A DNA stretch of 50,921 bases, the filler included, from Jimgerdemannia flammicorona (lineage: Eukaryota), in NCBI GenBank assembly GCA_003990765.1. It is 2 parts of 2 records of this genome, joined end to end, with 100 filler letters (N's around TTAATTAATTAA, not from the genome) between each part and the next. Parts side by side here need not be neighbours in the genome. Positions count along the whole stretch, not along the records: positions 1 to 25,412 come from RBNJ01000836.1; 1 more part is not named here. The stretch is one strand, 5' to 3'. The notes beneath the pieces were generated by a model, which did no database searches, was not told the origin of the DNA, and saw nothing but the letters and a program-made list of their open reading frames with translations. Below are positions 1 to 46,952 of the stretch, piece after piece; the stretch's first letter is position 1, and every line of letters begins with the position of its first letter. The position numbers and the translations under genes were made by a program.

Positions 1-900
1 AAAAGAGATTGGAGGAGATTGAGGTAGGCTTTGAGGAGACTGGAAGACATTGAAGGCTGGACTAGTAGTTGAGGAGATGGTGGTATCAATGAGAAATTTT
101 CTTAGATGAGATCTGAGGGTGGTTTAGCTCCTGGTAAAAGAGGAGCTCACAGTGACTACTATTGAAACAAGTAAGAGAGTTGAGGAGATCATAGTAGAGT
201 ATAATAATATTATAGATATCAGATTTCAGATTTAGAAGAGGACCTCTTTCCAAACTAGAAATGTGAATATCTGGATCAGACTTACTAGAAGAGAGATTAC
301 TAAGAAGCCTCAGAATCAATCTTTAGTAATAATGTAAAAAGTCTTTATCTATAAGATAGTGAGAGTAAAGAAGAGTAAGAAAGAGGGAAAGGATCCGTTA
401 GAGATCCTAGAGGAACTCAGTAGAGTAGTAGAGTATTAAGTAGTAGTATAGAGAGTATATGTAGATTTAATATACTTAGAGATAGTAGATGAGAAGTGTA
501 TTCATATAGATAAGATATAGTGGGAAAGGGCTTAGAGATGGAAGAGACAATAAGATCTGCTAATAGGTTTATAGAAGAAGACTAGTACTGAGAGGAGCTT
601 AGATAGAGTACAGATGAGTATTTGAGCTAATGTAGATATAGAGAGGAGAGTGGAGGATACTGTGGAGAGCATAGTGGTAAGGAATCAAGACTTTATAATA
701 ATAATATATTTGAGATCTTTGAGGATGAGAAGGATTACAAGATACAGATCACTGCTTTATTGTAAAATATTAGAAAGAATATAGAGATGAGGAGCACCCA
801 CAGTGTTTAGTTTTAGATACTAAAAATAGTAAAAAGAGAGTTGATGGTTGGGGTTGAGGAGGATGAGTTGGTCAATATTCTAGAGAAGAAGTGAGATGAG

Positions 901-2954
901 TGTAAGCACACAACCTCCAAGCTACCAAAATTACATGTCACCCTCCGAACAAGCCACTAAAATCACATGTGACCTCTGAACAAATCTGGAAATCACCTGC
1001 TTGATCATGAAGCTGAGTCAAACCGAAGTCACAGCACACAAAGCTGAGTCAATATGAAGTCACAGAACACAAGATCTACACAAATGGAATCTTACCAATC
1101 AGGATCAAATGCATATATACCAAGCACCAAAATGCATCAAATCAGAGAACCAAAACAAAACAACAACCACAACTTCCAAACACACAAACATGACCACCAA
1201 GATCTATACCCGCATCTGCACTGACATTTGGAATGCCATTGTCAACCGAGCCACACCCCCTCTGCCCCTCATAAATATCCATAGCCTAGCACCCCTCTAC
1301 TTCGTGGAAGCCCATTGGAATGCTCTGAACATGCTTAGCAAGGCCCACCGAATCGGACAAATATCAAGCTACTACCAGATTTGCTGCCTCCTGGAAGACA
1401 TGGTCAAACACCACCATGATACAGACATTACCAAGATGTCTCAATACCAGAAGCTCATTGCCCACAAACATCAAGAACTCTTCTATGAGTATAGTACCAT
1501 TATTCCCCACTTTCGAGTTACCACAAGTGAAATGATTGCTACCCTGTCCTATGGCCAAATCGATGACATGATACAAGAACTCAACCACAAGTACCTCAAG
1601 TATGTCGAAACCACAGACAGAACCTTCCCACACCCCAACGATCATATCCTGCAAATGCTCCAAGTTGGATATGCCATGAAGGACATCTACGATATAATCT
1701 ACTTCAATGAAGATAAAGCAGAAGACAATGATCCCTCTGACACCAACATGACCTCTAGCCAAGGATCTCTGCCAACCCTGATCACACTACCAACCTTGCC
1801 GATGAACTTACAACAATTCATAACAGCCTACGAGACTTATTGGAACAATGACCACTGGCACAAATACCAATCAGCATTTACCTCCAATTACTTCAACTAC
1901 AATGAAGAGACCAGAGAACACAACCTGTACCTCCAGACAACCCTAGAGACCGAACCAACCACTCCACCACCTGAGTACGAGTAACATAAACTACAGCTAC
2001 CAGCTTACTACAATTCTGCAACTCATAGTGCTGTAACGTACAGAAGGTATGCAGACAGTGAATCTGATGAAAGTGAAGATGATGCACCCCTCCTTTGCCC
2101 ACCAACACCTTATCCAGCATATGAGACAGACAATGCTATCTTGTGGGACAGAGATGAAGTTCCAATATATTATTACCTCAGCGAACAAGGAGAAGTAATC
2201 CGTGAACCACTCTTCCTAGATGACTACTTTATCAGAGATGATACAATCGATGGTGATGTTATCGAGGACTACCCAGACAGCACCTAAACCCATAAATAGT
2301 CTAGCAGTCATAGTATAGTTAGATTAGCTTTGTACAATGTGACTGTGAACTGACTCAGCAGTCTTGACATGTCAGATCACACTTATACTACATGACTGCA
2401 TTCTGACTCAGCAAAGCACTTAGTGCTACATCTATATTCAGCATAGCCCAGATAGCCCCTCACTAGTATAAATACCCACTCCCCCAGACCTCAGAATCTC
2501 AGACTCGAACACACAAGAACATTTCTGAATACTTCCCCACAATATCCCTTCACATAACTACTCCTAGTATAGCAATATCATAAATAGCAAATAAACCTAT
2601 TCAATAACCCACAAACCACTCTTAAGTAAATCTGCTCCCTGTTAGGTCCTACTCCTAACTCCCTCACGAAATTTCCTAATTGGGTATTGTCTGCAGCAAT
2701 ATACCAATTCAACTAAGCTGGTCTTAGTTTCTAGAACTTCCTGAAATAAGGAAAATCCTGAACATCCAGAACTAGTCCGAAAAAGGACTTTGGTTGAGAT
2801 ATCAACCTGATCTTGAAATCAATAAGCATAGAGGACGTACTCCATATGAAATTGATCTTGACCATAAAGAAAACAGTCTTCCAGAATATCCAGAACTTCC
2901 AGAAAACCCTTCCAGAACTATGTAACAGGTATCCTAAAAAGCAACCCTCTTACA
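901..2954 (+). mobile_element. 2054-bp solo LTR carrying an internal protein-coding gene
   Basis: Termini TGTAAG...CTTACA form a 6-bp inverted repeat. Perfect 5-bp TSD ATGAG at 896-900 and 2955-2959. TATAAA at 2467-2472 and AATAAA at 2590-2595. Short tandem repeats at 925-1075. No gag/pol. Confidence 0.88.
1190..2287 (+). pseudogene. LTR-encoded accessory protein of unknown function (365 codons, one internal TAA at 1982-1984)
   Basis: ATG at 1190 downstream of TATATA (1114-1119). Open for 264 codons, one TAA (probably from CAA), then 100 more open codons with an acidic tail to TAA at 2285-2287. The core motif matches ORFs at 45830-46746 and 23410-23880. Confidence 0.75.
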
Positions 2955-3476
2955 ATGAGGCAGTGAATACTAGTACTGATATTTCAATACTGTAGAAGAG
3001 AGGTCTATAACCTCTGTAGAAAAGAACATTAGTAATATATGCTTTATATATATAATGATGAGCTAAAGAGTTAGAGAGATAGACTTGAGGGCTACAGTAA
3101 TGAGTACTGAGAGAGAGTAATATAGAGAGATAGAATGATTGAAGCTCTGAAGGCTGAGATATTGACAGTATATCAAAAGGAGGAGTATTATAAGGTGGAT
3201 GCAATAAGAGAAGCAGAATTGGTAGTAGCTGCTAGAAACTGAGCTGTCTTTTAGTAGTAATAGTGATATAGACTATAGCTTTGACAGACAGTATTTGAGA
3301 TTATAAGAAGAAGATAGAGATAAAGAACAATGAGATACTGGCTAAAATACTAATCAGATTAGAGGCTAAGAGAGTTGTGAAAGAGAAAACTGCTGCAGAA
3401 CATAGACTAGACTTAGCTTGAGAGAAGATGAGTGTAAAACTATAAGGAAATTAGAGCTATTTAAATATTACTCAAT

Positions 3477-7250: not shown

Positions 7251-7413
7251 AGTGATTAATGGTCTATTGATCTTTAATTACAAAGAAGTAAGAGGTAGAC
7301 CCCTCAGAGAGATTGGGTAGTGGGAGGGATTACTCTATATTTTATAGATATAGATTAATTTTAGTAATAAATAATAAAGTCTGAGTAACTATAAAAAAAA
7401 AAAAAAAAAAAAA

Positions 7414-12835: not shown

Positions 12836-13240
12836 TGTAATGGTTCTAGTTTCTAAATGAGGAAGTGACTAGTTCTAGTAGTTCTAAGTACCTTGAAGAG
12901 ATACTTAAGGGTTCAAGTGTTCTCGAAGGATTTCTGGAAGAAAATATTCTGAGACTTTTATTCATGAGAACAAAGGGGATATTTATACAAGATCTGAAAG
13001 AAAGATCTGAAAGGATCTGAGAAATCAAAGGAAAATGCCAAGAGGAAAGTTCTCGGCAAAGATGACAAATGATGATAAATAAAGTTCTACAAGTTTCCAG
13101 GAAAATCAGTGACTAGCTAAATAAGTACTAGAGGATGCTTGGCACCAAGAAAGGATTTCTAAGCATTCAGAAAGTACTGAAAGGTCATAGAATATTGAAG
13201 AAAGACAAAGAAAAGAAATAAACTCCACTAAAATGTTACA
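12836..13240 (-). repeat. 3' LTR of the chromovirus (405 bp)
   Basis: TGTAAT...GTTACA. Near-identical to 18454-18857. Adjacent to the PPT at 13241-13253. Confidence 0.95.
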
Positions 13241-13554
13241 TCTCCCCCTCCTTAAGAATCAACATCCTCATTGAATTCTCAAAGTTATACATAATAAACA
13301 ATAAGACTAAAAGAAACTTCAAATTAAATATACCAACTCATTGGCAAGGATTGGCTGTCCTTATATAAGGTGAGGGCCAAAGTATCATCTTGATCAGATG
13401 AGAATTGGTTCAAACCTCATTGGTTGTAGGATTTATAGGGTTCTCATATATCTCTTATTTCTGATGCTGTATCCCTTAGAGAGCCCCGATGTGTAATGTG
13501 TCTGATCAGCACAGTAGGTCATCTACTATCCAAGGGGAGAACCTCACAAGTAGT

Positions 13555-16500
13555 CAATGAGTTCCTTTTTGCTCAAACTCTTGGATGAGATCTTGGGAGT
13601 TCTTGAGGTTGGCAGCAGGTTCCCAGATAGTATCATATTCAGTGTAACCCATCCACTTGACTAGGTATTCTGTGTGATGGTATTGGACTCATTTGTCTAA
13701 GATTTTCTCATCTTCATACTCAATGTAGTCTTCAACTATGACTGGTGCTGATGGTGTCAGAATTCGGCCAGGGTATGGGGGTGACTGGTTCCAGGCCTTG
13801 AGTTGTGACATGTGGAATACTGGGTGTATATGCATGGTTGTTGGCAAATTGAGACAGTAAGACCAGATAGAGACTTGCTCAGTAATCTCGAAGAGTCCAA
13901 GGTACTTGGGCTGGAATTTGGCTGACTGGCAGTTGACTTGAGATTGAGCCTTGATGTTGTCAGCTTTAAGGAGAACCATATTACCAATATTGTATATGAC
14001 ATCTCACTGCTTCTTATCTGCATACTTAGCTTGATGTTGCTGAGCCTTTTGTAAGTTCATAGTGGCAATCTTGAGAAGGGAATCTATTTTGTCGATTAGG
14101 TTTTGAGCTGTGGGGACTTGAATGTGACTGGATTGCTGGAATTGGACTAGACTTGCAGGGGTCTTAGGGTTTTGACCATTAAGTAGCTGAAATGGAGAAA
14201 GGCCAGTTGATGATTGGTTGACATTATTGTAGGCAAACTTGGCATAGATCTGATAGTGGTCCCAATCATCTTGCTCATAAGATACATAGTTTCTGAGCAT
14301 TTGTTCAAGTGTTCTGTTCATTCACTCTGTCTGTCTATCAGTTTGAGGATGAAAGGCAGTGGACATAGCAATTTGGGTTCCAAGAGTCTTGAAGAGTACT
14401 TGCCAGAAGTGACTTGTGAACTTGGGGTTGCAGTCACTGATAATTACTCAGGGAAGTCCATAATGGTAGAAGACAGTCTTGAAGAAGATTCTTGTAATTT
14501 CTGGAGCAGTGGCATTGGTTGTGGTTGGCTCAGCAATTGTAATCTTAGTGAGATGGTCCACAAATACAACAATAGCATCATAGCCTGTTTTGGTTCGTGA
14601 GAGTTGCACAATGAAGTCCATTGTGACTTGTTCGAACTTCTTGCTCGGAATTGACAAGAGTTGTAGAAGACTGGCAGGTGCTTGGTTGCTTGACTTGTTT
14701 CTTTGGCAAAGATCACAGCTTTGGACATACTCCTTGATTTCCTTGAGCATGTTTGGCCAGTAGTAGTCTCATTGGATATTCTTGATGGTCTTCTCAGTTC
14801 TAAGGTGGCCAGCTAGTATGGAGTCATGATGTTCATGAAGAATCTTGTACCATAGTTCAGGGTTGGCAGGAATATATACTTTGTCTTGATTGTACACAAG
14901 GTTGTCCTTGATGGTGTACTTTTTCTTGAATTCCTTGGTGTTCCTTTGTAGAACCAGAGAGTCTTGTTCATATACCTTCTTGATCTGGTTGAGGAATTCA
15001 GATACCACAGTGACTTATAAAATTGCGGCAAGGTCAGGTCTTCTTGAAAGTGTATCTGGTACAACTAGAGTTTTGCCAGACTTGTAGATGATGTTTGGGG
15101 TAAAGGTCTGGAGTAGTTGACTCCACTTGGCTTGTTGGCAAGAAAGTGTTGGTTGAGTGTTGATGTACTAAAGAGATCTGTGATCAGTGATCACATCAAA
15201 CTCATCTCCTTCTAGATAGTATTGCCAGGTCTTGAGGGCATGCATGATTGCCAGGAGTAGTAGCCAGCTTTTGTTCTCCTGGGGACAATTTTCTTGACTC
15301 AAAGAAAATAGGTCAGTGTTCTTGACCATCATCTTGAGAAATAACTACACCAATGGCAAAGTTAGATGCATCTGTAGTGACCATGAACTTCAAGTTTGGG
15401 TCCATGTTTCTAAGGACAGGTGCATGGGTCAGACAGTTCTTGAGTTCTTGAAAAGCTTATTGACAGAAGACATCCCAGATATAGGGGACATAGAGGTCAG
15501 AGTTTGGTTCTTTTCGCATGAGGTTTGTCAAAGATTCTGCAATGCCAAAGAAGTTCTTGACAAATCAATGGTAGTATCTAGCCAGACCAAGGAAGAACCT
15601 GAGTTCAGTGAGGTTTGCTGGTACAGGCCACTGTTCAATAGCTTGTATTTTCCTTGGGTCTACTTGAATTCCTTTGGCTGATACAATGTGTCTAAGGTAT
15701 TCAACTTGATCCTTAAAAAATTCACATTTCTTGAGCTTTGTGTAGAGCTTGTTCTCACAGAGGATCTTGAGGACTTGTTCAATGTGCTTAAGGTGTTCTT
15801 CTTCAGTGCTACTGAAGATCAAGATATCATCAATGTATACAAGTATGAAGATATATAGCTGATCTTTGAAGACAGTTTGCATAATATCTTGAAAGATTGC
15901 TGGTGCATTGGTGAGACCAAAAGCCATGACTAGAAATTTGAAGATTCCAAAGGGTGTCATGAAGGTAGTCTTGGGTATATCTTCTGACTTGATTCGAATT
16001 TGGTGATATCCAGAGGTGAGATCAATCTTGGTGAAGTACTTTGCATTTTTGAGAGCATCAAAGATTTGATCTATGAGTGGTAGCAGATAATGGTTCTTAA
16101 CTGTAATCTTGTTGAGTGCTCAGTAGTCTATGCATATTCACAGAGTATCATCCTTTTTCTTGACAAATAAGACTGGGGAGCTGAAGGGTGACTTGCTTGG
16201 TTGAATGGCTCCTCGCTCAATGAGTTCATTGAGTTCCTTCTTGACTGCTTCAATTTCAAGTGGAGACATGCAGTACATTTTCTTCTTAGGTATAGCTGCA
16301 TCAGGTACCAACTTGATCTCATGGTCATGGTCTCTTGAAGGTGGTAGATCTGGTAGTTTGTCTGGGAAGACATCCTTGTACTTGTTCAGCAATAACTTGA
16401 TGCTTTCACTAATCAATAGCTTCTTGTCTTCTTTCTTTGGTCGGATCAGTGCCACAAAGGCACAGGTAGCTTTCTTGAGGGCCTTCTTGAACTGAATTGC

Positions 16501-18335
16501 TGAAAGGGTCGCAATTGGGGTTCTTGTCTGAGTGTTGTCTGGCTTGATGGTAATGTTGGCTCCATCCTGAATCAAGGTGACTTCATTCTTGGTCCAATTG
16601 ATCTGTGGGTTGTACTGTGTAAGCCAGGGTTTGCCTAGGATCAGGTCATGATCTCCTAGTTGTGCTACATTGAAATCTAAATGTTCCCAGTACTTCTGGA
16701 TCTTGAGGGGAAGTTTAGTAGCAATTGAGTCAATTGGTAAGGTGGTGCTATCTGCAGTGACAACTCCACTATTCTTGCCAGCTGGTTTGGTGAGAATCTT
16801 GAGCTTATCAATGAGGTTCTTGTTGATGAAGTTCCCAACAGCTCCACTGTCTATAAGAACATCCAGTTCTTGTCCCTTGACTAGACCTTTGAAAATGAGC
16901 ATTGAATTGGCTCGGTTCTCAGCTATGCTTGCAACTTTGTCAGTACTGCCAAAGCCTTTCTGATCTCACTTAGTTGGAGACAGCTTGGTGACTTCTTTGA
17001 TGACTGGTAGGGTGGCTCACTTCAGAATGAGCTGTGCAATTCTGTCACCTTTATTAAATGATATATGGTTGGTTCTTGTGGTTGACTAGCAGGACTTGTA
17101 TTTCATCTCAAAAGTCAGGGTCAATGACTCCAGCACTAACATCCAATGAGTGCTTGAAACTGAGGCCAGATCTTGATGCAATTCTTGCATAATGTTCCTT
17201 TGGGATTTCAACTGAAAGACCAGTTGGAATGAGCCTTCTCTCATATGCCAGAATAGTGACTTATTATACTGCTTGAAGGTCTAAACCAATGGCTCCTTCT
17301 GACTGTGCTTGAGGGATCTGGGCCTTAGGGTTGACTTGTATGAAATTGAGTACAACTTCTTGTTCAACTGGTTGACCTTGAGTGTCTTTGGACAGGACCA
17401 GGATCCTCTTTGGTTTGGCAGTTTTCTTGGGACATTTGGTTGCAATGTGACCAGGCTGATGGCAAAAGAAGCAGGCTCCAGCCTTCTTGAGGTGTTCCTT
17501 TTCCTCAGGTGTAAGCTTGCCTTTCTTGCTCTTATTGATGATGTCTAGGTCCATGGGGGCAGGTCCAACAGTTCTGACTTTGGGTTCCTCTCTTCTATAG
17601 TTGTTGTTGTTGTTGAAAGGTAGTCTCTTCTGTTCGAAGCAGTGACCATAGGTGATGACATCAAACCTATTAGTAATTTTCATTGCTGTATCTAGGTCCT
17701 TGGGTTCTTCTAGTTCAACATGAACTAGGGTTTGACCTTTCAGGTCTCAGATGTACTTGTCAACCTTCTCATCTTTGGTGACATGTGGTAATTCTAGCAG
17801 GATTGACAGGAATTATACATTGTATGCTTATATAGACTTGAGTTGTTTGACATTTGTCAGATGGTCTAATGTGGCCTTAGTGCTATTGACTGGTTTGAAT
17901 TGGCCTTGAATAGCATCAGAGAATTTGCCCCAGGTCTTGATTCAGTCAGAGAATCTGGTATTCTAGACAGGATTTCACCACCAGATTACAATATTCCCTT
18001 AGTGGAGTGTGGCAGCAAATTGGACTAGTGTTGCTTCTTCCAAATTGGTCAGTTCTCCATATTGCTCCAATTGGAAAAGCCAGGCATTGGTAGATAGTCC
18101 TTCTCTTTGACCATCAAAGGTGTCGGGCTTCTGAGGCTTGATAGTGACTGTTGTTGGATGTATTGATGTCAGTGGAGGTGTAGAGGTATAAGCAGAGGCC
18201 TTGCTTTCCTTTCTTTCTATGCATTCTTAAAGTTGAGCAAACTGAGCTAGTGCAGTCTGCAAAAGACTCTTGATGGCTCCATTTGACTGAGTAGGGTTTT
18301 GCTGTTTCTCTTCTTCTTGCTGATGGTAAGAGGTA
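13555..18335 (-). pseudogene. Gag-Pol polyprotein with stops and frameshifts; start approximate
   Basis: CFFCHQPGHIATKC knuckle; dUTPase AIGLDL/ASRSGL/AGVIDPD/RIAQLI/KGFGST at ~16940-17345; LIDSGA protease; LVYIDDILI RT; integrase HHCC, VTMDFI and NRTLEQMLR; chromodomain EYEDEKILDK...EYLVKWMGY...WEPAANL. Confidence 0.93.
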
Positions 18336-18440
18336 TTGTCTGGACCATAGATACTGTATGAAAGATTTCATCCATTGTCCTCCATAGTATTGTGACTGAT
18401 ATATTGAGAGGTATCTTGATAAGGCTAAGTGCAACTTAAC

Positions 18441-18451
18441 TACTGCTACCA
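18441..18451 (-). promoter_or_regulatory. Primer binding site, probably initiator tRNA-Met
   Basis: TGGTAGC two bases inside the 5' LTR is complementary to the GCUACCA 3' end of eukaryotic initiator tRNA-Met. Confidence 0.7.
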
Positions 18452-18453
18452 AG

Positions 18454-18857
18454 TATAATGGTTCTAGTTTCTAAATGAAGAAGCAACTAGTTCTAGTAGT
18501 TCTAAGTAGCTCAAAGAGATACTTAAGGGTTCAAGTGTTCTCGAAGGATTTCTGGGAGAAAATATTCTGAGACTTTATTCATGAGAACAAAGGGGATATT
18601 TATACAAGATCTGAATGAAGGATCTGGAACGATCTAAGAAATCAAAAGAAAATGCCATGAGGAAAGTTCTTGGCAAAGGTGACAAATGATGACAAATAAA
18701 GTTCTACAAGTTTCCAGGACAATCAGTGATTAGCTAAATAAGTACTAGAGGATGCTCAGCACCAAGAAAGGATTTCTAAGCATTCGGAAAGTACTGGAAG
18801 GTCATAGAATATTGAAGAAAGACAAAGAAAAGAAATAAACTACACTAAAATGGTACA
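18454..18857 (-). repeat. 5' LTR of the chromovirus (404 bp)
   Basis: Direct repeat of 12836-13240 with the terminal TG mutated to TA. Adjacent to the PBS. Confidence 0.95.
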
Positions 18858-25412: not shown

Positions 25413-25512
25413 NNNNNNNNNNNNNNNNNNNNNNNNNNNNNNNNNNNNNNNNNNNNTTAATTAATTAANNNNNNNNNNNNNNNNNNNNNNNNNNNNNNNN
25501 NNNNNNNNNNNN
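25413..25512. other. Artificial contig-joining linker
   Basis: 44 N + TTAATTAATTAA (stops in all six frames) + 44 N = exactly 100 bp. Confidence 0.97.
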
Positions 25513-25835: not shown

Positions 25836-25839
25836 ACAT

Positions 25840-26327: not shown

Positions 26328-26361
26328 TTATAATGAAATATGTTTTGTTTGCAATCAATTC

Positions 26362-28392: not shown

Positions 28393-28490
28393 AATACTAG
28401 TAGCTTTTCTCCAGAAACTGTATTGAAAGTGTTGCCAAAGATTGTGTAACCTGAATGTTACCAGAGAAAGGTTGCCTTCCGCCTGAGACC

Positions 28491-34857: not shown

Positions 34858-36960
34858 TGTATCATGCGGTTGATATCTCTAGTTGCTTCAAGTACAGCTC
34901 AATGTGCCACTTGGTGGAGTGCACGGTATATGACTGAGTGCATTTGTGATGATTGCAGGTTGATGGTCATATGATCGGTTCGTCCGATTCATATGGTGGA
35001 GGCTTGGTTATTTAGTGGTTGATGAATTTTCCTAGTGGCAAATTACTTCTTGAATGTATATGGTTTGTGGCACAGCGGGTAAAAGGGGAACTCATCCATC
35101 TGACTTGTTAGGTGAATAACAACAATGCTGGCTTTTCTAAGCTAAGTATCCTTGGGTTCCTTGGCTGGGGTCTTAACACTTGAATGGTGGGTCTCGAATG
35201 TGCAGTCTTGAACCTCGAATGGCAGTTGGTTCTGAATGCACAGTGGTCAGGTCGAATGCACGATAGTTGGGCTGGCAGGATCTCAGCGGCAGTTGGCAGT
35301 TTTTATGTGGCTTTTCCTTTAGCAGTGGATCTTTAAACTGAACTAAATGGCTTTTCATGTGGCTTTCCTTAGCAGCGAATCTTGAATGTTTTCCATGGTA
35401 AGAGAAAATTCTTTAACTCAAACCTCGAGTGATCATTGCTCTAGTTATCTTGTTCTCAGAATTTATCTGGTCTCTTGGAGGCAGTGAGGTTTCTTTGTAA
35501 TCCTTTTTACTTTTAAACACAAACTGACTGAGGTTTATTCACTCTAAGATATAGGGTTATTTATACAAATTTGCTAGCTATAGGGGTGGGCTAAGGTATA
35601 CTATGTTGTGGTGGTTTAATTGCTGAATATGGGTGTAACAATTGTTTGCACCGAATTGGGATAAGATGAGTGCTAGTGCTGGATATGGATGTTGCAATTG
35701 TTTGCGCTGAATTGAAATAAGATGAGTGCTAGTACTGGATATGAATATTGTGGATGGTATCACTGAAAATGGATGTTGCTGACTTGTTGACAAACGTTGG
35801 CTGACCGGACTGAGGAAACAGACATTGAATCACTGAATGGTAAAGTACCCTTCATCAGTGATCCAATCATCTTGCTGGGTTGTGACTTCTTCATCCTATT
35901 CTTCAAAGGGTGGGAGCGCTGGCCAGGAGGTGAGGGGGTAGAATTGTGGCCAATCATCTTTGATGACATTCTCCAACCCTTAGACTGCTTGAAGGCAGAC
36001 AGAGGATTGATAGATTCTTTGTTCCTCCTCTTCTTCTTCCTCAGATCCTTCAGTTTCTGTATTGGTAGGAACTTCTGGGACTTCTTGATTTGGTTCCCAA
36101 ATGATGAGGTGCGAATTGTAGCTGACAGGGAGGTGAGTAGTTGGGGTTGCTCCAACAGGTGTTGTAATGGTAATGGGTGGTCCTTCGAAGATTTCCATGA
36201 GACTCATTAGGTGACCTTGATGGTTGTCTCAGAGTGGAGTGGTGTGAAAGCCTGGTTGAGTGGGCTCAGTTTGTTGGCTTTCTACAGCAACCTGGTTACT
36301 ACCAATAGAGTCGGCTACTTCTGATTCTATCCAGTCTGCATCTTCAGTTGAGAGATGGGCAAGACTTACAGCAGTCACTCCTTGTAAGTATGCTATAGCC
36401 CAGGGAATATGGCAGAAGATTTGGTAGACACAGAGAGCTCTCTTGATTAGCCAGCTGGTGGTTAACATTTTGGCAATGAGGTCTTTCTGGTCACCTTCTT
36501 GGGTTTCATTATGAAGGCGGTGTCCAATTTCGTAATCATACCAGAGGGTCATTCATTCAGTGGTATCTTTGAGCTGTTGGGTCATTATGTACCGGTAATT
36601 GATGAAGTGTCCAAGATTCTCGGTGTAGAAGTTCAGATGTTCAGAGGTGTTTGGGTGCCAAATAGCCTTTTTGATAGCTTCAAGGATTAGAGTCTTTGGG
36701 CCAGGCAAGGGGGAAGAGTGGCGGGAGGTCTGGTTGGGGCAGCAGATGAGGTATTGTGTAGTGAGTACTTGTTCTTTGGTACTGATTCCTGAGGTGGAGT
36801 ATGGTTTTTTAAATAACATAGTCTTCCTTTTGGCTCGGATTATCATTGCTCCTTTTGGGGTGATCACCTAATGGGTCAGGCTGTCTATTCGATTGTCATG
36901 CCATTATGTCATCTGATCTTAGCAGTCACCAGTACTCCATTGTTAATTACATACATCACA
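34858..36960 (-). repeat. 3' LTR (2103 bp)
   Basis: TGT...ACA termini; direct repeat of 44821-46952. Confidence 0.95.
35840..36754 (-). pseudogene. LTR-encoded accessory protein, 3' LTR copy
   Basis: ORFs 36553-36867, 36229-36552 and 35980-36207 are in one frame. The start codon appears mutated to ATA at 36752-36754. Confidence 0.72.
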
Positions 36961-36999
36961 TCTGCCTCTTGCAAAATTAGAGCCGTCCTCAGTGGTGAG

Positions 37000-39900
37000 G
37001 GTTACACAGAGTTGGGTGGTCTTAACTCCAGGGATGAGCAGAATGTCAGCACATTTGTGAGGACTGGCCATTCTTGTCTAGGGCGAGGGCTCTCATAGTT
37101 ATAGCTGGGGGTTCGAACCCATCGGAAATAGTATTTCTTGTAATCTGAGGCAATTTCTTAGTAATAATGTCTGTCACATGGATGGGCTTGAATCTGGTTC
37201 CAACATTGTTGGCTTTCTTGAGTTCTGAGTGAAATGTCTATCATATCTCCAGTAGAGATGACACAGACAGAGTGAACAGGATTGTTCAAATGTATTTTAC
37301 TTCTCTTGAGTAGTAGAGTCTTATGTGGTTGTAGTGTATCTTGGTCTTGAGTATAACTCCATCCAAGGTCTTGAGTTGATAAGTGTAGTTCGAGAATACT
37401 TAGTGTATGAGATAGGGGCCTTCCCATTTTGGTTCAAGCTTGGCACTCCAATTTCCTTCTATGATGGTACGGTATACCAGAACCTTTTGTCCAATGAGCA
37501 GGGGTTCGAGGTTGGCTTTGCAGTCGTAGTACCTCTTTTGTTGTTCTTGTGCCTTGGCGATAAATTCTCGTGCTTGCTGGCATATGTCATGTAACCGAGT
37601 GATCTCTTCTGTAACTCATTTTGACAGATCTAGCTGGACTGTTTCAGTAGGATCTTGTGCTTCTCAGCCATACACCAAATAGAAGGGGGTCTGTTGGGTA
37701 GTGGTTGCCTTAGAGGTACGGATGCTGAACAGAATTGCCGGTAGATAGATATCCCAGTTTAGTTGATCTCTGGTTCTACTGAGACCTCGCTTGATGGTCT
37801 GGTTCATTCATTCAGTAAGTCCATTTGCCTGTGGGTAGTAGGCTGTTGTTGGTTGTAGCTTGATCTTGAAGTTGCTCGCAAAGGTCTTCATGGCTTGGTT
37901 GATGAATTCTCGGCCTTGGTCTGTAATGATTTCCTTGGGCACACCATGGTGGCTGAAAATTTCATCATACAGGATCTCAATAATTGTCTGGGCATTTGTA
38001 GTCTCAATGGTGAAGGCTTCAGGCCATTTTGTCAAGTGGTCTTTGATAGTGAGGATGTAGCATCTTCCTCAGCTAGTTGCTGGTAAGGGTCCAATAATAT
38101 CTATTCCCAGTCTTTGAAAGGCTCCAGCTAGTACTACAATCAGTATTAATGGTGCTCTATCAGTAGGTTTTTGTCAGTATCTTTGGCAGATATCACATTA
38201 TTGAATGTGTGTTGAAATTTGTTTTCTCATCTTAGGCCACCAGTATCGCTTCTTGATTCTTGCAATTGTGGTGCCAATTCCTCGGTGTGCATTTTGGTCA
38301 TAATTTGTTGTCAGGATCTTCAATATTTCTTCCTCTCTTGGAACTCGGGTGTACTGCTCTCCTTCTACTCTCCAAAGTTTGCCATTGCCTTCTTGGAATT
38401 TCTTGAAATTTCTTTGGATAAACAACTTGTAGGCTGGTTGGATTCCTTTCTTGAAGCTTCTATGGTGTAGACTCCAGGTGAGGGTGAGGTGCAATTCTTG
38501 GTTCATTTGGGTGAGCGGGAAGCAGCCTTCTCTTGTGGGGACTCCTTCCCTTCTTGTTGGTTTTACGGGATTCTTGACAGGGTATTGACATTGGAATTTT
38601 TAGCACCTTTCTTGTAGACAATAGTGAACTAATTCTTGCAGAGATATGATCCATCTAGCGAAGATTCCTGAGGGCTCTGGCTTATTGAACAACTATTGTA
38701 GAGCTTGATGGTCAGTGATGAGGGCAAATCTCTTTCCCAAGAGATAGTGTCGGAAGTGGTCCACACCCCAAACTACTGCTAGGTATTCCAACTTAGTGGC
38801 TCCATAGTTTGCTTGTGTTTCATTTGTGGTCTTGCTAGCATATTCAATAACATGCTCCCTCTTCTGGTCATCTTGCTGAGACAGAATTGATCCAAGTCCT
38901 AAGGCTGAGGCATCAGTTGCCAGGATGAATGGTTTGCCAAAGTCTGGTCACACCAGGACAGGGGCTTCGGTAAGGGCCTTCTTGAGACTTTTGTTGTTCT
39001 TCTTTCCAGTAGAATGGTTGGTCCTTCTTGGAGATATCTTGGAGAGATACTGCCTTATCTGAAAACCTTGGGATGAATCGTTGATAGTAGGATACCAGCA
39101 TAAGAAAAGATAGGGTCTCCTTTACTGAGGTTGGGGTTGGGTAGTTCTTGACTTTCTCCACTTTGCGGGAGTCAGTATGTGTTCCTTGAGCTGAGACAAC
39201 ATATCTCAGATATTTGACTTGATGTTTTCCAAAGAAGTACTTCTTGGCATTGAGTCTGAGTCCTGAATTTCGAATAGTATTGAATACTGCGGAGGTCTTG
39301 CAAATGCTGCTTGAATGTCTCAGAGTAGATGATTACATCATCTATGTACACTAGTACATTTCTTCCAATGAGGTCCCGGTAGACATAGTTCATCATTCGT
39401 TGGAATGAGGTGGGTGCATTGCAGAGTCCAAAGGGCATTCATAGGTATTCATACTGTCCTCTTCTGGTGATGAAGGCCATCTTGCAGATATCTTCTTTGG
39501 CAATAGGTATTACTTGGAATCCTTGGAACTAGTTGGTAGTGGTCATGTATTTGGCTTTTCTGAGGGCATTGATGAGGTCATCAATTCTAAGCAGTGGGTA
39601 GGTATCTTCTGTAGTGACTTTGTTGAGTTTTCTGAAATCCACAACTAATCTCCATCCTCCTTTCTTTGGTACTATGATTGCTGGTGAAGCCCAGGGGCTT
39701 GATGATGGTCTGATGACTCCATTTCATAGCATTTCATCTATGTGTTGTTGTTCGAATTCAATCAGATGATGTGGTGTTTGGTAGAGTCATTGTCGGATTA
39801 GTCTTGCATCTCCAGTATGTATAGGGTGTTCTCCATATTGATATGGTGGGAAGTTATCATATGTGGTGGTAAATATATCTTTGTACTCCTCTATCAACTC

Positions 39901-42900
39901 CTGTATCTGTTGTTGCTGGTCCTTAGTTAGAGTTGTCTCGATGTCGATGGCTTTGATTGCTGAATTTGCTGAGTCTTCCTCCCTAGTACCATCAGTCTCA
40001 CCAGAGAGGACTTGCCATTTCCCAAGAATTTGAAGACTTCTTCCTTATAGGTGTCTATCAGTGGTTTGAAATATCCTAGTGTTGTTCCCTTGGGAATAGT
40101 TATCACTTTCAAGCCCAAGTTTCTGATAGGGATGTGGATCAGTGACATCTGGTCATAAATTTGTTCTTCAGCCAGGAGGATGTGGTATTTCTTTTGAAGC
40201 TCCAGTGATAGTGCAAATATCAAGTTGTTTGCTTCTACTGGTAGATGCACATCTAGGCCTTTTTGCTGGTAGGGCTGCAGGAGGATGTCTTTTCTTGCTC
40301 AGATTGGGCAGCAGATGTGGGGTCTCATTTGTCGGAATTGAGCAACTGTTGCTAAATGAATCTCGATAGATAGTGTTCATGGATTTCTATTGGTGCTTCC
40401 AAAGCCTCCTTGTCCTCTATTGGTATCTTCTAGTTGGTCTACCTCTTGGATGGTCGGCTGTAATGTCTTGATAAATAGGATTTGGCAGATGGCTTCCATA
40501 GGACTGAAGAATCAGCTGGTTCTACTAGAATTGTGAATAATGGCCTTCAAGGGACCTCGGTAGTCCTGATCGATGACTCCTCCTTCTACTGTGACTCCTT
40601 TGGTTGCTAATGAGGATCTTGAGGCCAATTGTCCATAATACCCAGGTAGTATAGCGAGTGCAATCTGTAGGTCAAAAATCCTGGTACTTCTGGGTTGGAT
40701 TCTTGCTTGGTAGGAGAGGCAGAGGTCATAACCAACTGATCCTTCTGTTTGTGCAAGAGGTGGCTGTGCCTAGGGTGAAAGCAGCTTGACCTGGATAATT
40801 GGTTGAGCTTTGAGAAATAGCACTTCAGCTGTTGCCATTGTAGGTGAGAAGTCCATATGCTCCAGTTTGAAGAAAGGTCAGTGAGCTCCTGTCTTTGAGT
40901 TTCTTGTATAATTGAATCCAGTCTTTTCTAGAGGGTCCAGAGCTTCTATAAGGATGAAGGCAAGATTGATACCTTCTTTTTCTTGATGAGGGTGCAGTAC
41001 CAGCGAATGATGGCAAGAACTTCCAATGGTAGGTCCCAGATAGAGGTCTTGCTCTTGAACTTGCAATCTCCTTCATTGTTGATTTCTTTGCACTTCCGAC
41101 AGGTCCAGAAAATTCAAAGTTCTTGCAGGGTAGGATCCTTTCTCTTGACTTGGCTCTTGTAGACATCTTCGCTGAGGTGAACATCTCGATGTTCACACCA
41201 GTGGCAGGTAAAGGTCTTTCCACAATCACAATGTCCCTTCTTGACAAAGTCTTCATTTCACTATTTGACTTCCCTACTGGTAGGGAATCTCTTCCGATAC
41301 TTATCATAGGTGGGCTGTGTGATCTGGAGGGCCCGGGTGATAGTATAAGAGCTGCTGCTTTCTCCTTCGATGGTAAGGGACTCGTATGTTTGGCAGGCGA
41401 GGATCTTCTGTCCTCCCTTATAGGTCTTCTTGAAGGTCTTCAGGGTTGGAGGTTGTATTCGACTGTGGGATGGTGCTTACTTCAATTCATCCTTATCATC
41501 AATTTCTGGCATTGGAACCTTCTTGAGATCCAGGATTCAGCAATTGCTGCAATCATCTCTTAGTGAGTGGAAGCTGATGAAATGTTTACATATGCCTTGA
41601 CAAAAGGCTCGCATGATCCGATTTTCTACCAGTGGTGGTGGTGGTTGAGCAGATGGTCCTGCAAACTCAAGTGCTGCCCTTGTATTAATGGCTCTATCAA
41701 TGCTTTCTTCCAGACCTTCAACACCAATAACTCTAATGAAAGAGTCTTCTTGTTTGCTTTCTTGGTCCCTTGGGGCATCAAAATCACTTCCTAATTCTTA
41801 TAGGAAATTGGCCTCACTTTCATCCTCAGTAGTAGTGGGGGTGTTGCCATGTCCTTGCCATTCTGTTTCTGAGGCTTGATTCGTCCTTTTGGATAATCCT
41901 TTCGAGTCAATGGGCACCTTGTGCTTCTGTCCATGAATGGAGAAGACCAGGAGTTGTTTCTTGATATCTACATTGGCTCCAACTCGGCTTAACCAGTCAG
42001 TTCCCAGGATCAGGTCATAGGAGGTTGCAGGGGTCATGACAGCTTTGGGTACATTGAGGCAGGCCTTTCCGACTTGAATGGGGATGTCTCTGACAAGTCC
42101 AAGGGGTGTGGAAGCTGATCCGTTGGCCATAATAACTCTTGCTTTGGTTCCTTCATCTATTCCCCATCCAATTCACTCCAACATCCTTTGGGTGATGATG
42201 CATACTGCTGCTCCAGTATCAACGAGAATTCTGGCATTTTCACCATGTACTTTTCCATTGGCGAGTCTTGTAGATTGATGTTCATATCACTGGCTCTCAT
42301 GGGCTGTGTGGATAGTGCTAGGTTATTGAGTGTGTGGTCCTTGGACTGGAAGTCTCTTGGTATCTTCCTTGGCTTCTTTCAGGAATTTTCGCCTGACCTC
42401 TAGTGCATTCTTGAGGACTTGCTCAACTGTAAGACCAGCATTCTGTAGGCGGATATGTTCCCAAAGTGAGGCTGCTGCATGGGGCTTGCTGCTTCTTCAG
42501 TGTCTTGGTCCCTTGGGGTATAGTCTCTCATTCCTGATGGGCATTTCATCAGCTGAAGATTCTATGCTCATATGCTCATCTTCTTCAAGGTCTGGCAGGG
42601 TAGAGCTGGGGGTTGTCCTAGATGGTCCGGCTTCTAGTTCAGGAGTATCTCTTCTAACTCACTTCTCCTGTTCTTGTGGAGTATCTGAAGAAGAATGGCC
42701 ATATCGCAGATGCTTGCCTGTGGATATTGTTACTGGCAGTTGAGGTGGGGGTTTCTTTGTGATCTTCCTCATCCTCTGGTCTCTGTGGGGGCAGCTTCCT
42801 ATGTCACCTTGGATGGGAAAGCCTCGAAGTATAGGTAGATGTCATCTTCTTGACCATGGAGCCAGGCTGCTTCTTCTTCCATCTCCTGAGTCTCTTCATC

Positions 42901-44751
42901 TACCTGAAAGAGGTTGACATTTCTGTCATTGGACTGGGTGGATTGGTTTCTTGGACAATTCCTCTGGATGTGGCCTTGATTTCCGCAGTTGAAGCAGGTG
43001 GGACCATAGGAACCAGTCACTGATGAGACTGTAGTTGCAGCTGGTAGTGTGGGGGCAGGACCTCTGTTGTCTTGTTGCTGGTAGTCTGGTCTGTTATCAT
43101 GACAGTAGTCTTGTTGTCTTCTACCTTGGTTTTTCAGCTGGGCAACTGCGATGGCCAGGTCCTTCATTTGCTTGGTGAGTATTGTCATGGGGTCTTCTTG
43201 AACTCTTGATGGTGGCTGCTGCTGTGGTTGCCTAAATGGAGTCAGATTTGTGGGTGCTAGTCTGTTCTTATAGTTGGCTATCTGGGCTCTGAGGAAGGCA
43301 TTCTCTTGCTCCATGGTTGTTCCTCGGGTCCTTGGGGTTTCAGCTCAGATTGGCTCATGATAGTCTTGTACTTGTTGTACTGGTCTATAATCTGCTTTCC
43401 AACATCCTTGTGCTCCAGCAACTTGCTGTTCAATGTTTCAATATCCCATCCTGATAACTTGCCTTCGGAGTTCTGAGTATAAGCCATTGAGGAAGGTAGT
43501 TGAGGCTAGAGCCAGTTGGACTGCTGGTTGAAGATTTGTCTTGATCATTTGAGCTTGAATCCAATGGTAGAAACTCTTGGGAGTTTCATTGGCAGCTTGG
43601 CTCATATAGGTCAAAGCCTCCTATGCTTCTTGTTGGCACTCGAATCCATTGAACTGGGCATGGAGCCAGGCTTTGTGAATCATGTACCTTGCTACATGGT
43701 TTCTATCAGATTGAAGGCCATCATTCAGTTCCTCTGCATGGATTCCTCCTCCGGCTTGCTTGGCTTGATTATACCTCTGTAGGGCTGGTCCTCTCAGGAG
43801 TGACTCCACAATTCTGAGTTTTCTTGCAGCATCCCATTGTTTGGCAGCTGCTTGAACTTCAATTTCTCCAAAGAATTTCTTGATGTCTTCATTGTCTGCA
43901 CCATGGAACTTCTGAAGGTAGCTCATGTCTGGCTTGTCTTCACTATCTGAGTATTGTTCAGGGGTAGGGGATCTGGCAGATCCTTGAGGTGATGGGGAAG
44001 GTGGTGGTGCTAGTACTTGATGAACTAGTGATGCTGGCAGAGGGTGGTATCTTGGTGAGGGTGAGGGTAATCTGGCTCTTCTAATTAATGCTGGGGTTGA
44101 AGTTCTGGGTAGTGGTGGAGATCTTCTGATTGACTAGTGATAGTGGCAAGGTGTGAGTGACCAGGGTACTGAAGTTCGAGCAACTGATGGTGGGAGTGGA
44201 CTGATATAACTGATAGTGAGTTCGTCTGCCCCTTGCTGTTGTGAAGTAGTGAGGTCTTGTTTGCCTTGTTGTGAGTTTGTGTTACTGTCTGGATAATAGT
44301 GTAGGTTGAATTCGTCTCTTTGATGGTCTGATCCCCAATCGTCGTCTTGCTCTGGTTGATATGGATGGTAGTCCTCTTCTCCTTCTGATGTTTCAAAGTA
44401 TACCCGGTCCAGTAGAGTGACTCAAGTAATGACAGTAGTTATGTAGTCACTTCTGTCTGAGTTCATCCTATGGATAAGAGTCTGATACTTCTCGGGAATA
44501 TTCTCTTCTTCTTCTTGGTCTAAGTCTTGGATCTGAAGGAGTGGTTCTGGTTGTCCTCTGAGTTGTCTCCTTTCTCTTGAAGTCAAACCGTAATCTGGGT
44601 CACTTCTTTCTTCTGATTCAATTTTCTGGCTACAGGTGTTAAATAGGGTCCTGGCTACTGTTCTGACAAGGGTGTGGGCTTTCTTTTCTACTGAGGAGGG
44701 CTGTTGCTGACCCTGGTTTGGTTGCTGACTTGGTCCTGCTAAGTTCTCCAC
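37000..44751 (-). pseudogene. Gag-Pol with many CGA>TGA/CAA>TAA-type stops; ends approximate
   Basis: KFHGADNEDIKKF gag; CFNCGNQGHIQRNC knuckle; ILVDTGAAV protease (~42205-42232); dUTPase SVGYDL/ASRSSL/GGVIDQDY/GGFGST (~40390-40800); MPFGLCNAP and VYIDD RT; integrase IITDQGREF and QANGLTE. Confidence 0.93.
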
Positions 44752-44800
44752 TGTAGATAGCTGGGTTCTTGAGCCAAATGGTCAAGTCTTTTGAAAACTT

Positions 44801-44817
44801 TCTCAGTTGAGCCCCCA
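44801..44817 (-). promoter_or_regulatory. Primer binding site, probably tRNA-Pro
   Basis: TGGGGGCTCAACTGAGA next to the 5' LTR resembles the tRNA-Pro PBS (TGGGGGCTCGTCCGGGAT in MLV) after CpG decay. Confidence 0.7.
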
Positions 44818-44820
44818 AAA

Positions 44821-46952
44821 TGTAGCATGCAGTTTGTATCTCTAGTTGCTTCAAGCACGGCTCAATGTGCTACTTGGTGGAGCATGCAGTATATAACTGA
44901 GTGCATTTGCGATGGTTGCAGGTTGATGGTCATGTGATCGGTTCGTCCAATTTATATGGTGGAGGCTCAGTTGTTTAGTAGTTGATGAATTTTCCTAGTG
45001 GCAAATTACTTCTTGAACATATATAGTTCATGGCGCAGTGGGTAAAAGGGAAACTCGTCTATCTGACTTGTTAGGTGAATGACGATGGTGCTGGCTTTCC
45101 TAAGCTAAGTATCCTTGGGTTCCTTGGCTGGGGTCTTAACACTTGAATGGCAGGTCTCGAATATGCGGTCTTGAACCTCAAATGGTGGTTGGTTCTGAAT
45201 GCACGGTGGTCGGGTCGAATGTACAATGGTTGGGCTGGCGGGATCTCAGTGGCAGTTGGCAGTTTTTATGTGGCTTTTCCTTTAGTGGTGGATCTTTAAA
45301 CTGAACTGAATGGCTTTTCATATGGCTTTCCTTAGTGGTGAATCTTGAATGTTTTCCATGGCAAGAGAAAATTCTTTAACTCAAACCTCGAGCAATTGTT
45401 GCTCTAGTTATCTTGTTCTCAGAATTTATCTGGTCTCTTGGAGGCAGTGAGGTTTCTTTGTAATCCTTTTTACTTTTAAACACAAACTGACTGAGGTTTA
45501 TTCACTCTAAGATATAGGGTTATTTATACAAATTTGCTAGCTATAGGGGGGACTAAGGTATACTACATTGTGGTGGTTTAATTGCTGAATATGGGTGTGA
45601 CAATTGTTTGCACCGAATTGAGATAAGATGAGTGCTAGTGCTGGATATGGATGTTGTGGGTGGTATCGCTGAAAACAGATGTTGCAATTGTTTGCACTGA
45701 ATTGGAATAAGATGAGTGCTAGTGCTGGATATGGATGTTGTGGATGGTATCGCTGAAAACGGATATTACTGACTTGCTGACAAATGTTGGCTGACTGGAC
45801 TGAGAAAACAGACATTGGATCACTGAATGGTAAAGTACCCTTCATCAGTGATCCAATCATCTTGCTGGGTTATGACTTCTTCATCCTATTCTTCAAAGAG
45901 TGGGAGCACCAGCCAGGAGGTGAGGGGGTAGAATTGTGGCCAATCATCTTCGATGACATTCTCCAACCCTTAGACTGCTTGAAGGTGGACAGAGGATTGG
46001 TAGATTCTTTGTTCCTCCTCTTCTTCTTCCTCAGATCCTTCAGTTTTTGTATTGGTAGGGACTTCTAGGACTTCTTGATTTGGTTCCCAAACAATGAGGT
46101 GCGAATTATAGCTGACAGGGTGGTAAGTAGTTGGGTTTACTCCAACAGGTGTTGTAATGGTAATGGGTGGTCCTTCAAAGATTTCCATGAGACTCATTAG
46201 GTGACCTTGATAGTTGTCTCAGAGTGGAGTGGTGTGAAAGCCTGGTTGAGTGGGCTTGGTTTGTTGGCTTCCTACAGTGACCCGGTTACTACCAATAGAG
46301 TCAGCTACTTCTGATTCTATCCAGTCTGCATCTTCAGTTGAGAGATGGGCAAGACTTCCAGCAGTCACTCCTTGTAAGTATACTATAGCCCAGGGAATAG
46401 GGCAGAAGATTTGGTAGACATAGAGGGCTCTCTTGATTAGCCAGCTGGTGGTTAACATTTCGGCAATGAGGTCTTTCTGATCACCTTCTTGGGTTTCATT
46501 ACAAAGGCAGTATCCAATTTCATAATCATGCCAGAGGGTCATTTGTTTAGTGGTATCTTTAAGCTATTGGGTCATTATATACCGGTAATTGATGAAGTGT
46601 CCAAGATCCTCAGTGTAGAAGTTCAGATGTTCAGAGATGTCTGGGCACCAAATAGCCTTTTTGATAGCTTCAAGGATTAGAGTCTTTGGGCCAGGCAAGG
46701 GGGAAGAGTGGCGGGAGGTCTGGTTGGGGCAGCGGATAGGAGGCATTGTGTGGTGGGTACTTGTTCTTTGGTGCTGATTCCTGAGGCAGAGTATGGTTCT
46801 TTAAATAACATAGTCTTCCTTTTGGCTCAGATTATCATTGCTCCTTTTGGGGTAATCACCTAATGGGTCAGGCTGTCTATTCGATTGTCATGCTATTATG
46901 TCGTCTGATCTTAGCAGTCACCGGTACTCTATTGTCAATTGCATATATCATA
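44821..46952 (-). repeat. 5' LTR (2132 bp)
   Basis: Direct repeat of 34858-36960 with the terminal CA mutated to TA. TATAAATA at 45521-45528 and AATAAA at 45497-45502 on the - strand. Confidence 0.95.
45830..46746 (-). pseudogene. LTR-encoded accessory protein, 5' LTR copy; 3' end approximate
   Basis: ATG at 46746 with TATTTAAA at 46800-46807. ORFs 46564-46746, 46219-46542 and 45970-46197 are one frame broken only by TAG/TGA/TAA stops that each need a single C>T change. Confidence 0.72.

Follow-up and report, generated by a model that had tools for sequence, protein, structure and literature searches.

A probable accessory gene inside the long terminal repeat of a high-copy retrotransposon of Jimgerdemannia flammicorona

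Solo LTR and its repeat family

The DNA studied here is a stretch of 50,921 nucleotides, filler included (hereafter the window), from the Jimgerdemannia flammicorona assembly GCA_003990765.1. It consists of two parts joined end to end, of which positions 1 to 25,412 come from RBNJ01000836.1, and all positions count along the window. The subject is a solo long terminal repeat (LTR) of a retrotransposon at 901-2954 and the open reading frame (ORF) that it contains. A preliminary description of this DNA had presented the LTR as a gene cassette of its own. The coordinates it gave for the termini, the target-site duplication, the frame, the TATA-like box, the TATA box and the poly-A signal were all correct on re-reading. 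The features are listed in Table 1.

Reading of the sequence showed inverted-repeat termini at 901-906 (TGTAAG) and 2949-2954 (CTTACA). The ATGAG duplication directly flanks a single unit, and a 5-base match of this kind arises by chance in 1/1024 cases. Thirteen public sequencing runs were listed as matching the stretch, 12 of them with part of it; they were mostly soil metagenomes, together with two coded organisms. Four runs were aligned to window positions 701-3154 at 80% likeness, giving 3372, 424, 322 and 459 contig pieces. The pieces of run X1 were distributed over the identity classes 99% and above (386), 95-99% (983), 90-95% (1407) and below 90% (596). In all four runs the contig depth was 0-0.15 in bins 783-864 and 2997-3078, against 8 to 3300 inside the unit. 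Because the depth falls to zero outside positions 901 and 2954, the unit is a high-copy repeat with exactly these borders.

The loose ends of contigs at the two borders show what adjoins other copies. They were 30 bases long and came from few contigs among the loose ends listed, beyond which there are 213 further loose-end entries. Before 901 they were purine-rich, with ..AAAAAGAGGAGAGT as the consensus of three X3 contigs and AGAAGGGGAGAGT, followed by TGTAAGC, in one X7 contig. Past 2952-2955 they read ..TTGGTAGCAGCAG, with ..ACTTGGTAGCAGCAG / ..AACTTGGTAGCAGCAGTTT in a single X3 contig and CTTGGTAG in a single X7 contig. At the left border the ends form a polypurine tract and at the right border a TGG-type primer-binding site, each at its canonical place in other copies. 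Non-LTR explanations, such as a DNA transposon or a small non-autonomous element, were rejected because the polypurine tract and primer-binding site adjoin these copies. Further copies, sought as DNA in metagenome, viral and prokaryote genome contigs, were not found there.

The primer-binding motif TTGGTAGCAG of the copies is also the primer-binding site of element A, a Ty3/Gypsy element in the window. This motif, and the TGTAA.. termini that resemble those of element A, are hints that the element of the studied LTR may belong to Ty3/Gypsy. No tRNA gene was found within the 50.9-kb window to match against the primer-binding site.

The stretch 901-2954 is the remnant of LTR-LTR recombination in a high-copy LTR retrotransposon, and it is a dead solo copy. 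The solo LTR proposed in the preliminary description is thus borne out by the TG...CA ends, the ATGAG on both sides, the repeat borders and the polypurine tract and primer-binding site at other copies.

The 31-bp unit of the tandem duplications near the left end of the LTR contains TGAGTCA once per copy, at 1014 and 1045. Gaps of 31 and 69 bases within 918-1072 in contigs of run X9 indicate copy-number variation of these repeats.

The reading frame inside the LTR

The LTR contains a single plus-strand frame that is open from 1058 to 1984 and then continues from 1985 to 2287. Its ATG at 1190 is the first ATG past the TATA-like box, and the frame cannot extend upstream beyond an in-frame TGA at 1055-1057. 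The TAA at 1982-1984 is the sole internal stop. The ORF starts 289 bases from the LTR start and ends 667 bases from the LTR end, so it lies wholly inside the LTR. It is in sense orientation, upstream of the TATA box (2467) and the AATAAA (2590) of the LTR and of the putative border between the U3 (unique 3′) and R (repeat) regions.

The LTR strand is A/C-rich and G-poor, and fewer stops are therefore expected in it; hence the frame was compared with shuffled sequence. The frame comprises 308 open codons, or 409 if one stop is allowed; 1000 dinucleotide shuffles of the LTR yielded at most 207 and 235, respectively. When the ORF region alone was shuffled, the maxima were 155 (open) and 208 (one stop). 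The other five frames of 1190-2287 contain 9 to 29 stops. A chance ORF arising from the A/C-rich composition was rejected because the shuffles never attained the length of the frame. The frame of 365 codons with one stop that had been described before was confirmed from the sequence, and it lies beyond the shuffle maxima. It is a real coding gene situated wholly within the LTR.

Table 1. Position, strand and character of the features annotated in the window.
Feature	Position	Strand	Remarks
Solo LTR, 2054 bp	901..2954	+	TGTAAG...CTTACA termini; high-copy repeat sharing these borders
Left target-site duplication ATGAG, 5 bp	896..900	.	Identical to 2955-2959
Right target-site duplication ATGAG	2955..2959	.	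Sequence read
Two tandem duplications, 5′ end of U3	918..1072	+	32-bp unit (918-983); 31-bp unit (1010-1072)
TATA-like box TATATA	1114..1119	+	71 bases upstream of the ORF ATG; candidate ORF promoter, putative function
LTR-borne ORF, 365 codons and stop	1190..2287	+	TAA 1982-1984 (codon 265); pseudogene in this copy
Pair of TGACTCA sites (2351, 2404)	2351..2410	+	Upstream of the main LTR TATA box
TATAAATA, presumed main LTR promoter	2467..2474	+	Putative transcription start; U3/R border probably near 2500
AATAAA, LTR poly-A signal	2590..2595	+	Sequence read
Element B, Ty3/Gypsy, complete but decayed	34858..46950	-	Inserted in AT-rich repeat
5′ LTR of element B	44821..46950	-	ORF from 46746 down to 45820, 4 internal stops, then TATAAATA and AATAAA
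3′ LTR of element B	34858..36958	-	ORF remnant ends at 35830; start codon ATA, 2-base deletion just after
Element A, complete Ty3/Gypsy	12838..18857	-	403-bp LTRs, 93.5% identical, without ORF; duplication TCTCT

Relatives, selection and decay of the frame

A HMMER search of 1.84 billion representative proteins with E values up to 0.001 returned 4 proteins. P0001 (247 amino acids (aa), E 5e-98, 64% identity) spans residues 115-364 of the ORF, and P0003 (128 aa, E 3e-63, 83% identity) spans residues 1-128. P0004 and P0005 are repeat or low-complexity proteins and were treated as chance matches. Word-index searches recovered the same two relatives, one among 54 candidates and the other among 30. 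The start methionine of P0003 is the start methionine of the window ORF. P0001 has glutamine at the site of the TAA and ends at the same residue, and its alignment with the ORF has two gaps only, of two residues each and in frame.

The replacements between the window ORF and P0001 were conservative. The mean BLOSUM62 score of the 88 mismatches was +0.19, while unconstrained drift gave -0.46 to -0.59. These drift values came from simulations in which the window DNA was taken to the same identity, with 400 runs for each of three transition/transversion ratios (standard deviation 0.16-0.18, maximum 0.08). Simulated drift also made 4.0-5.2 stops in the stretch covered by P0001, with none in 0.4-1.9% of 1000 runs.

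The differences among copies of the LTR were examined at the 40 places listed out of 549 differing places, and 28 of the 40 lie in the ORF. The expected synonymous counts were computed from the mutation type of each difference. The 28 ORF differences included 15 synonymous ones against 8.6 expected (P 0.008). This excess was found in the 11 differences that vary among copies (X1 share 0.08-0.75), 9 of which were synonymous against 4.0 expected (P 0.002). The 17 private differences, peculiar to the window copy (X1 share at least 0.9), comprised 6 synonymous changes and 11 replacements, against 4.6 synonymous expected (P 0.30). The 28 differences were distributed over codon positions 1/2/3 as 10/2/16, and only 8 and 3 of them were synonymous when scored in the two wrong frames. 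The ORF frame of the 5′ and 3′ LTRs of element B, which diverged after insertion and reflect the mutational spectrum of this genome, served as a neutral yardstick; there, 17 of 56 differences (30%) were synonymous and the codon positions stood at 20/20/16.

Because the among-copy differences are mostly synonymous and the private changes are neutral-like, the gene appears to be selected in active elements and is a pseudogene here. Judged by these comparisons of sequence, it looks to be under purifying selection in the transposing lineage, and the window copy is a decaying pseudogene, with one TAA and private changes of neutral appearance. The preliminary description had proposed that the LTR-borne gene survives as a working copy in the solo LTR; this does not hold for the window copy, with its TAA and its apparently neutral private changes.

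Ten of the listed places in 1190-2287 have A in the window and G in the family, and 5 of these follow C (1199, 1406, 1706, 1862 and 2132). At 2131-2132 the window has CA and the family has TG. This pattern is the signature of deamination at methylated CpG in the repeats of this organism.

Promoter signals and transcript

TGA(G/C)TCA, written TGASTCA below, is the AP-1/Gcn4-type site. It occurs at 11 sites in the 50.9-kb window (10.1 expected), 4 of which lie within the studied LTR; for 2 kb about 0.44 would be expected, which gives a Poisson P of ~0.001 in a post hoc count. The TGAGTCA pair lies 69 and 100 bases upstream of the TATA-like box at 1114, and the TGACTCA pair lies 63 and 116 bases upstream of the TATA box at 2467. 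Since each TATA box has a TGA(G/C)TCA pair upstream, the anatomy favours a separate promoter for the ORF as a plausible arrangement. The preliminary description had assigned the ORF a TATA-like box of its own at 1114. The sequence is present there, and the tandem repeats with the paired TGAGTCA make a separate promoter anatomically plausible.

In LTR elements the genomic RNA begins in R of the 5′ LTR and ends in R of the 3′ LTR. If transcription starts after the TATA box at 2467, the position of the ORF must be U3. The ORF would then stand only at the far 3′ end of the genomic RNA, behind pol and beyond scanning ribosomes, so a separate or spliced mRNA would be needed.

The contig depth of run X9, which is RNA by guess and of uncertain library type, reached 541-1564 in bins 2505-2750; within most of the ORF it was 3-21, with 0 in bins 2013-2258. 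Such values would agree with a start shortly past the TATA box at 2467 and with little RNA from the ORF, but they are summed contig depth and not expression, and no inference was drawn from them.

Character of the encoded protein

A Pfam search of the ORF with E up to 1 found no family apart from GrpE at 0.15-0.25, below the GrpE cut-off. PDB searches found no sequence relative (best E 0.35 and 0.94), and the best score in the ESM Atlas, 0.79, was within noise. There was likewise no homology to Sag of mouse mammary tumour virus (MMTV) or to Nef in Pfam or in the PDB profile search (best E 0.35). As far as these searches reach, the protein is without detectable relatives beyond its own family. 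This agrees with the preliminary description, which had called the accessory protein unnamed: the ORF has no Pfam or PDB match and 2 convincing relatives among the 1.84 billion representatives.

The N-terminal part (residues 1-141) is helical and near-neutral. The C-terminal part is strongly acidic, rich in proline and aromatic residues, and probably disordered. Structure prediction, which the preliminary description had suggested, gave a predicted local distance difference test (pLDDT) score below 40 for this protein and also for the LTR protein of element B described below.

A second LTR-borne gene in element B

Element B has LTRs of ~2.1 kb that are 91.4% identical to each other. Between them lies an internal region coding for a CCHC gag, protease, dUTPase, reverse transcriptase, RNase H and integrase. 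The dUTPase domain lies at 40515-40769 (Pfam E 2e-19), between the protease and the reverse transcriptase. ATAG is found at both ends of the element if the start of the 5′ LTR is read as TATG.

The layout of the element B LTR is like that of the solo LTR. A long sense frame of ~310-330 codons occupies the 5′ two-thirds and is followed by TATAAATA and AATAAA. The ORF of each element B LTR has 4 internal stops, 3 of which are common to both LTRs. Because both LTRs carry them, these 3 stops predate the insertion of element B.

Intact relatives of the element B ORF were found on separate contigs: P0012 (331 aa), P0006 (325 aa) and P0008 (324 aa). P0010 (290 aa, on a 19.4-kb contig) and three shorter pieces are further relatives. 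The relatives read R, Q or W at the sites of the element B stops, and the end of P0012 is like the end of the B frame. The replacements between element B and P0006 were again conservative, with a mean BLOSUM62 score of +0.17 against about -0.5 under drift. LTR-borne genes are recurrent in this genome, because a second, unrelated-looking gene holds the same place in the element B LTRs.

Relation between the two LTR genes

The preliminary description had lined up the core of the ORF by eye with ORFs of other element families in the window. BLAST, hidden Markov models (HMMs), Smith-Waterman alignment and hhalign were all negative for this line-up. The lowest E in a tblastn search of the rest of the masked window with the ORF was 0.31, for a match within the BTB/SPRY gene described below. 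HMMs of both families, run against all 858 window ORFs of at least 30 aa, found their own pieces only, and the next best E was 0.18 (ORF family). The Smith-Waterman score between the ORF and the element B LTR ORF was 38, against a shuffle mean of 38.9, and 269 of 500 shuffles were as good; the semi-global z was 1.3. The hhalign comparison of the two families gave probabilities of 0.3% and 0.5% and E of 0.12-0.22. The region of the proposed motif (residues 60-115) had no match at all in these comparisons. Profile similarity among the copies, which had been named beforehand as a test, was thus not significant in the HMM search of the window ORFs or in hhalign. A motif or domain common to three element families was rejected on tblastn, HMM, Smith-Waterman and hhalign. 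At the level of these alignments the two LTR genes are not detectably related.

The charge layout is alike in both families. The N-terminal parts have isoelectric points of 6.8 and 8.1 and the C-terminal parts of 4.1 and 4.2, and in both proteins a helical N part is combined with a C part that is acidic and rich in proline. Smith-Waterman and hhalign agree on the top local match, which joins residues 294-311 of 365 with residues 287-304 of 331, after an acidic run. It reads P-x-T-x-[YW]-P-A-[YL], a pattern with 2 matches in the six-frame translation and no other; it was defined post hoc and is not significant.

Other features of the window

In element A the LTR begins with TGTAAC. CTTGGTAGCAGTAG stands directly after the 5′ LTR as the primer-binding site, and AAGGAGGGGGAGA stands directly before the 3′ LTR. 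A pol fragment 67.6% identical to element A lies at 28483-29942 (plus strand). Loose ends of X9 contigs at 2367 and 2826 resemble A-type LTR ends, which suggests that A-type elements are nested in other copies of the studied LTR.

An AT-rich repeat family (21-30% guanine plus cytosine (GC)), with copies 70-80% identical, is found at 23112-24394 and at 33243-34540 with 47093-47535. One copy of this family is split by the insertion of element B. The DNA around the solo LTR (1-900 and 2955-8000) has a strong GC skew (+0.27 to +0.43) in the direction contrary to the LTR and looks like another A/C-rich repeat on the minus strand.

A probable host gene lies at 47708-48980 on the minus strand. Its BTB domain (E 2e-8) and SPRY domain (E 7e-6) are encoded in two frames that overlap, which points to an intron or a frameshift. 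Its nearest cluster in the ESM Atlas is a Mucoromycota BTB/SPRY family (score 0.89). The stretch 25413-28240 is a GC-rich island (47-55% GC) that opens with two runs of N, each of 44 bases. Tandem LP[VI]LP-type repeats occupy 25515-25833 of the island, and its minus strand has a frame of 599 codons at 26365-28161 with no Pfam match.

Proposed explanation and alternatives

The locus is probably best explained as a solo LTR of a high-copy retrotransposon with a complete 365-codon accessory gene in U3, which was selected while the element transposed and is decaying in this copy. A separate promoter near the 5′ end of U3, formed by the two TGAGTCA-bearing tandem repeats and the TATATA at 1114, would drive the gene. 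The mRNA would start at ~1140 and be polyadenylated via the AATAAA at 2590. With a length of ~1.45 kb it would stay inside one LTR and cross the main promoter at 2467. The protein might act in trans for the element, as an activator of LTR promoters with an acidic tail or as an adaptor against host silencing. We hold this trans-acting role with low confidence, as a guess from composition.

Several observations weigh against this explanation. Element B transposed with a dead copy of its ORF, so an LTR gene is not needed in cis, and the stops over the whole path between element B and P0006 (4 against 4.9 expected) are at the neutral level. Over the whole path between the window ORF and P0001 there is one stop against 4.6 expected, a weak difference (P ~0.06). 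The synonymous counts draw on no more than 28 differences, and the 40 places listed among the copies may carry a selection bias. Both P0001 and P0003 are protein sequences only, so synonymous counts stand in for the ratio of nonsynonymous to synonymous rates (dN/dS), and database proteins are called because they are open, which is an ascertainment bias. An active copy would carry the ORF in both LTRs, and no full-length element was recovered. The AlphaFold models of the two LTR proteins were unusable (pLDDT 32.7 and 37.5), which leaves the guess at function without structural backing. The pairing of the TGASTCA sites was noticed post hoc, and no run among the 13 listed as matching the stretch is recorded as RNA.

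The frame might instead be a relic or passenger that has no present role and persists in the copies through faithful LTR copying and the youth of the family. The broken window copy, the 3 stops with which element B moved, the neutral stop count between element B and P0006, the small number of database relatives (2, both fragments) and the lack of a fold for either protein would all suit a relic. We nevertheless consider it unlikely, since 9 of the 11 among-copy differences are synonymous (P 0.002) and the replacements are conservative in both families, about 4 standard deviations off neutral drift. A relic would also have to keep its start, end and frame at 64% identity, with two in-frame gaps of 2 residues only, and the element B family has several intact copies of 324-331 aa. 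The ORF could also be the last exon or tail of an internal-region gene that is spliced from the genomic RNA via the 3′ LTR, in which case the TATA-like box at 1114 would be irrelevant. The genomic RNA does hold U3 at its 3′ end only, splicing is the usual retroviral solution (nef, sag, tas), and the promoter at 1114 is a candidate only. This is nonetheless a most improbable origin for a frame that is closed upstream by the in-frame TGA at 1055-1057, that begins 289 bases inside the LTR at the very methionine with which P0003 begins, and that has TGAGTCA tandem repeats and a TATA box just upstream.

The remaining alternative concerns the connection between families and holds that the LTR ORFs of several families in the window are homologous, share one small helical domain and form a single ancient accessory-gene family. 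Two families do agree in position, size, strand and charge layout, and their best local match falls at the same relative place in Smith-Waterman and hhalign. The alignments speak against common descent, with hhalign at 0.3-0.5% (E 0.12-0.22), a Smith-Waterman score at the shuffle mean, HMM and tblastn searches without other matches in the window, residues 60-115 unmatched, and the P-x-T-x-[YW]-P-A-[YL] pattern defined post hoc. We therefore regard such homology as very unlikely and prefer the explanation of an accessory gene in U3 that was selected during transposition.

LTR retrotransposons are usually seen as gag-pol machines whose LTRs are purely regulatory. A conserved gene inside U3 that shows signs of a separate promoter is doubled with each insertion, can be expressed apart from the genomic RNA and is physically kept in a solo LTR. 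That two genes without sequence relationship occupy the same LTR position in two families of this genome suggests a repeatable solution and not an accident. LTR genes are masked along with the repeats in annotation, which may explain why only fragments are found in protein databases.

We speculate further that the LTRs of several families in this fungal lineage each carry a self-contained, promoter-bearing gene, and that such genes evolved independently at least twice; this wider proposal is doubtful at present. The bipartite products, with a helical N domain and an acidic tail bearing P-x-T-x-[YW]-P-A-[YL], would work in trans by activating LTR promoters or by antagonising host silencing. If this were true, any LTR could serve as an expression unit, the solo LTRs in their thousands among them, and the genes would be to retrotransposons what regulatory genes are to complex retroviruses. 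Should the proteins control expression of the element or host silencing, they would offer simple, testable counterparts of retroviral accessory genes in a group of soil fungi with a little-known transposon biology.

Comparison with known systems

Outside the present case, genes within an LTR are known chiefly from some retroviruses, which provide the closest analogues. The sag gene of MMTV encodes a superantigen and lies in U3 of a retroviral LTR. Like the studied ORF, it is a complete sense frame inside U3 that is duplicated with the LTR and stands at the 3′ end of the genomic RNA. The two differ in that there is no sequence similarity between them and that the studied ORF belongs to a retrotransposon of a probable fungus and not to an infectious retrovirus. 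The studied protein is acidic and probably disordered, whereas MMTV Sag is a membrane glycoprotein.

The tas/bel1 gene of foamy viruses, which has an internal promoter, and the lentiviral nef gene overlap U3. Both are 3′ accessory genes, like the studied ORF. Tas is expressed from a second promoter apart from the LTR promoter and is itself an acidic-domain activator, and by analogy it may serve as a working model for the studied ORF. However, tas and nef merely overlap U3 and start internally, whereas the studied gene and its putative promoter lie wholly inside the LTR, and no homology was found.

Extra, mostly orphan genes besides gag and pol are known as additional ORFs (aORFs) in plant Ty3/Gypsy and Ty1/Copia elements and as ORF3s in bdelloid rotifers. 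The known ones sit either ahead of gag, after the 5′ LTR, or behind pol, before the 3′ LTR, and the title of a paper on Retand elements (PMC11963269) gives such a position. These plant and rotifer genes are thus part of the internal region, whereas the studied ORF is wholly inside the LTR. In fungi, work by Zhao et al. from 2011 is said, going by its title, to describe brtn as an additional antisense gene of the Boty/BcGypsy1 elements of Botrytis cinerea. Like brtn, whose elements are Ty3/Gypsy, the studied ORF is an extra orphan gene of a fungal LTR element. By that title brtn is antisense, whereas the studied ORF reads in the sense direction within the LTR.

Neither 'in the LTR' nor 'within the LTR' was found by a term search in the accessible text of a review of plant aORFs (PMC7264820). 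In the portions consulted of the literature, including PMC8365987, PMC7264820, PMC10787394, PMC11302176 and PMC4031123 and with subscription journals mostly uncovered, no gene inside a retrotransposon LTR was reported. Accessory genes of LTR retrotransposons are a known type of gene; here such a gene lies within the LTR over its whole length, in two families from a single genome.

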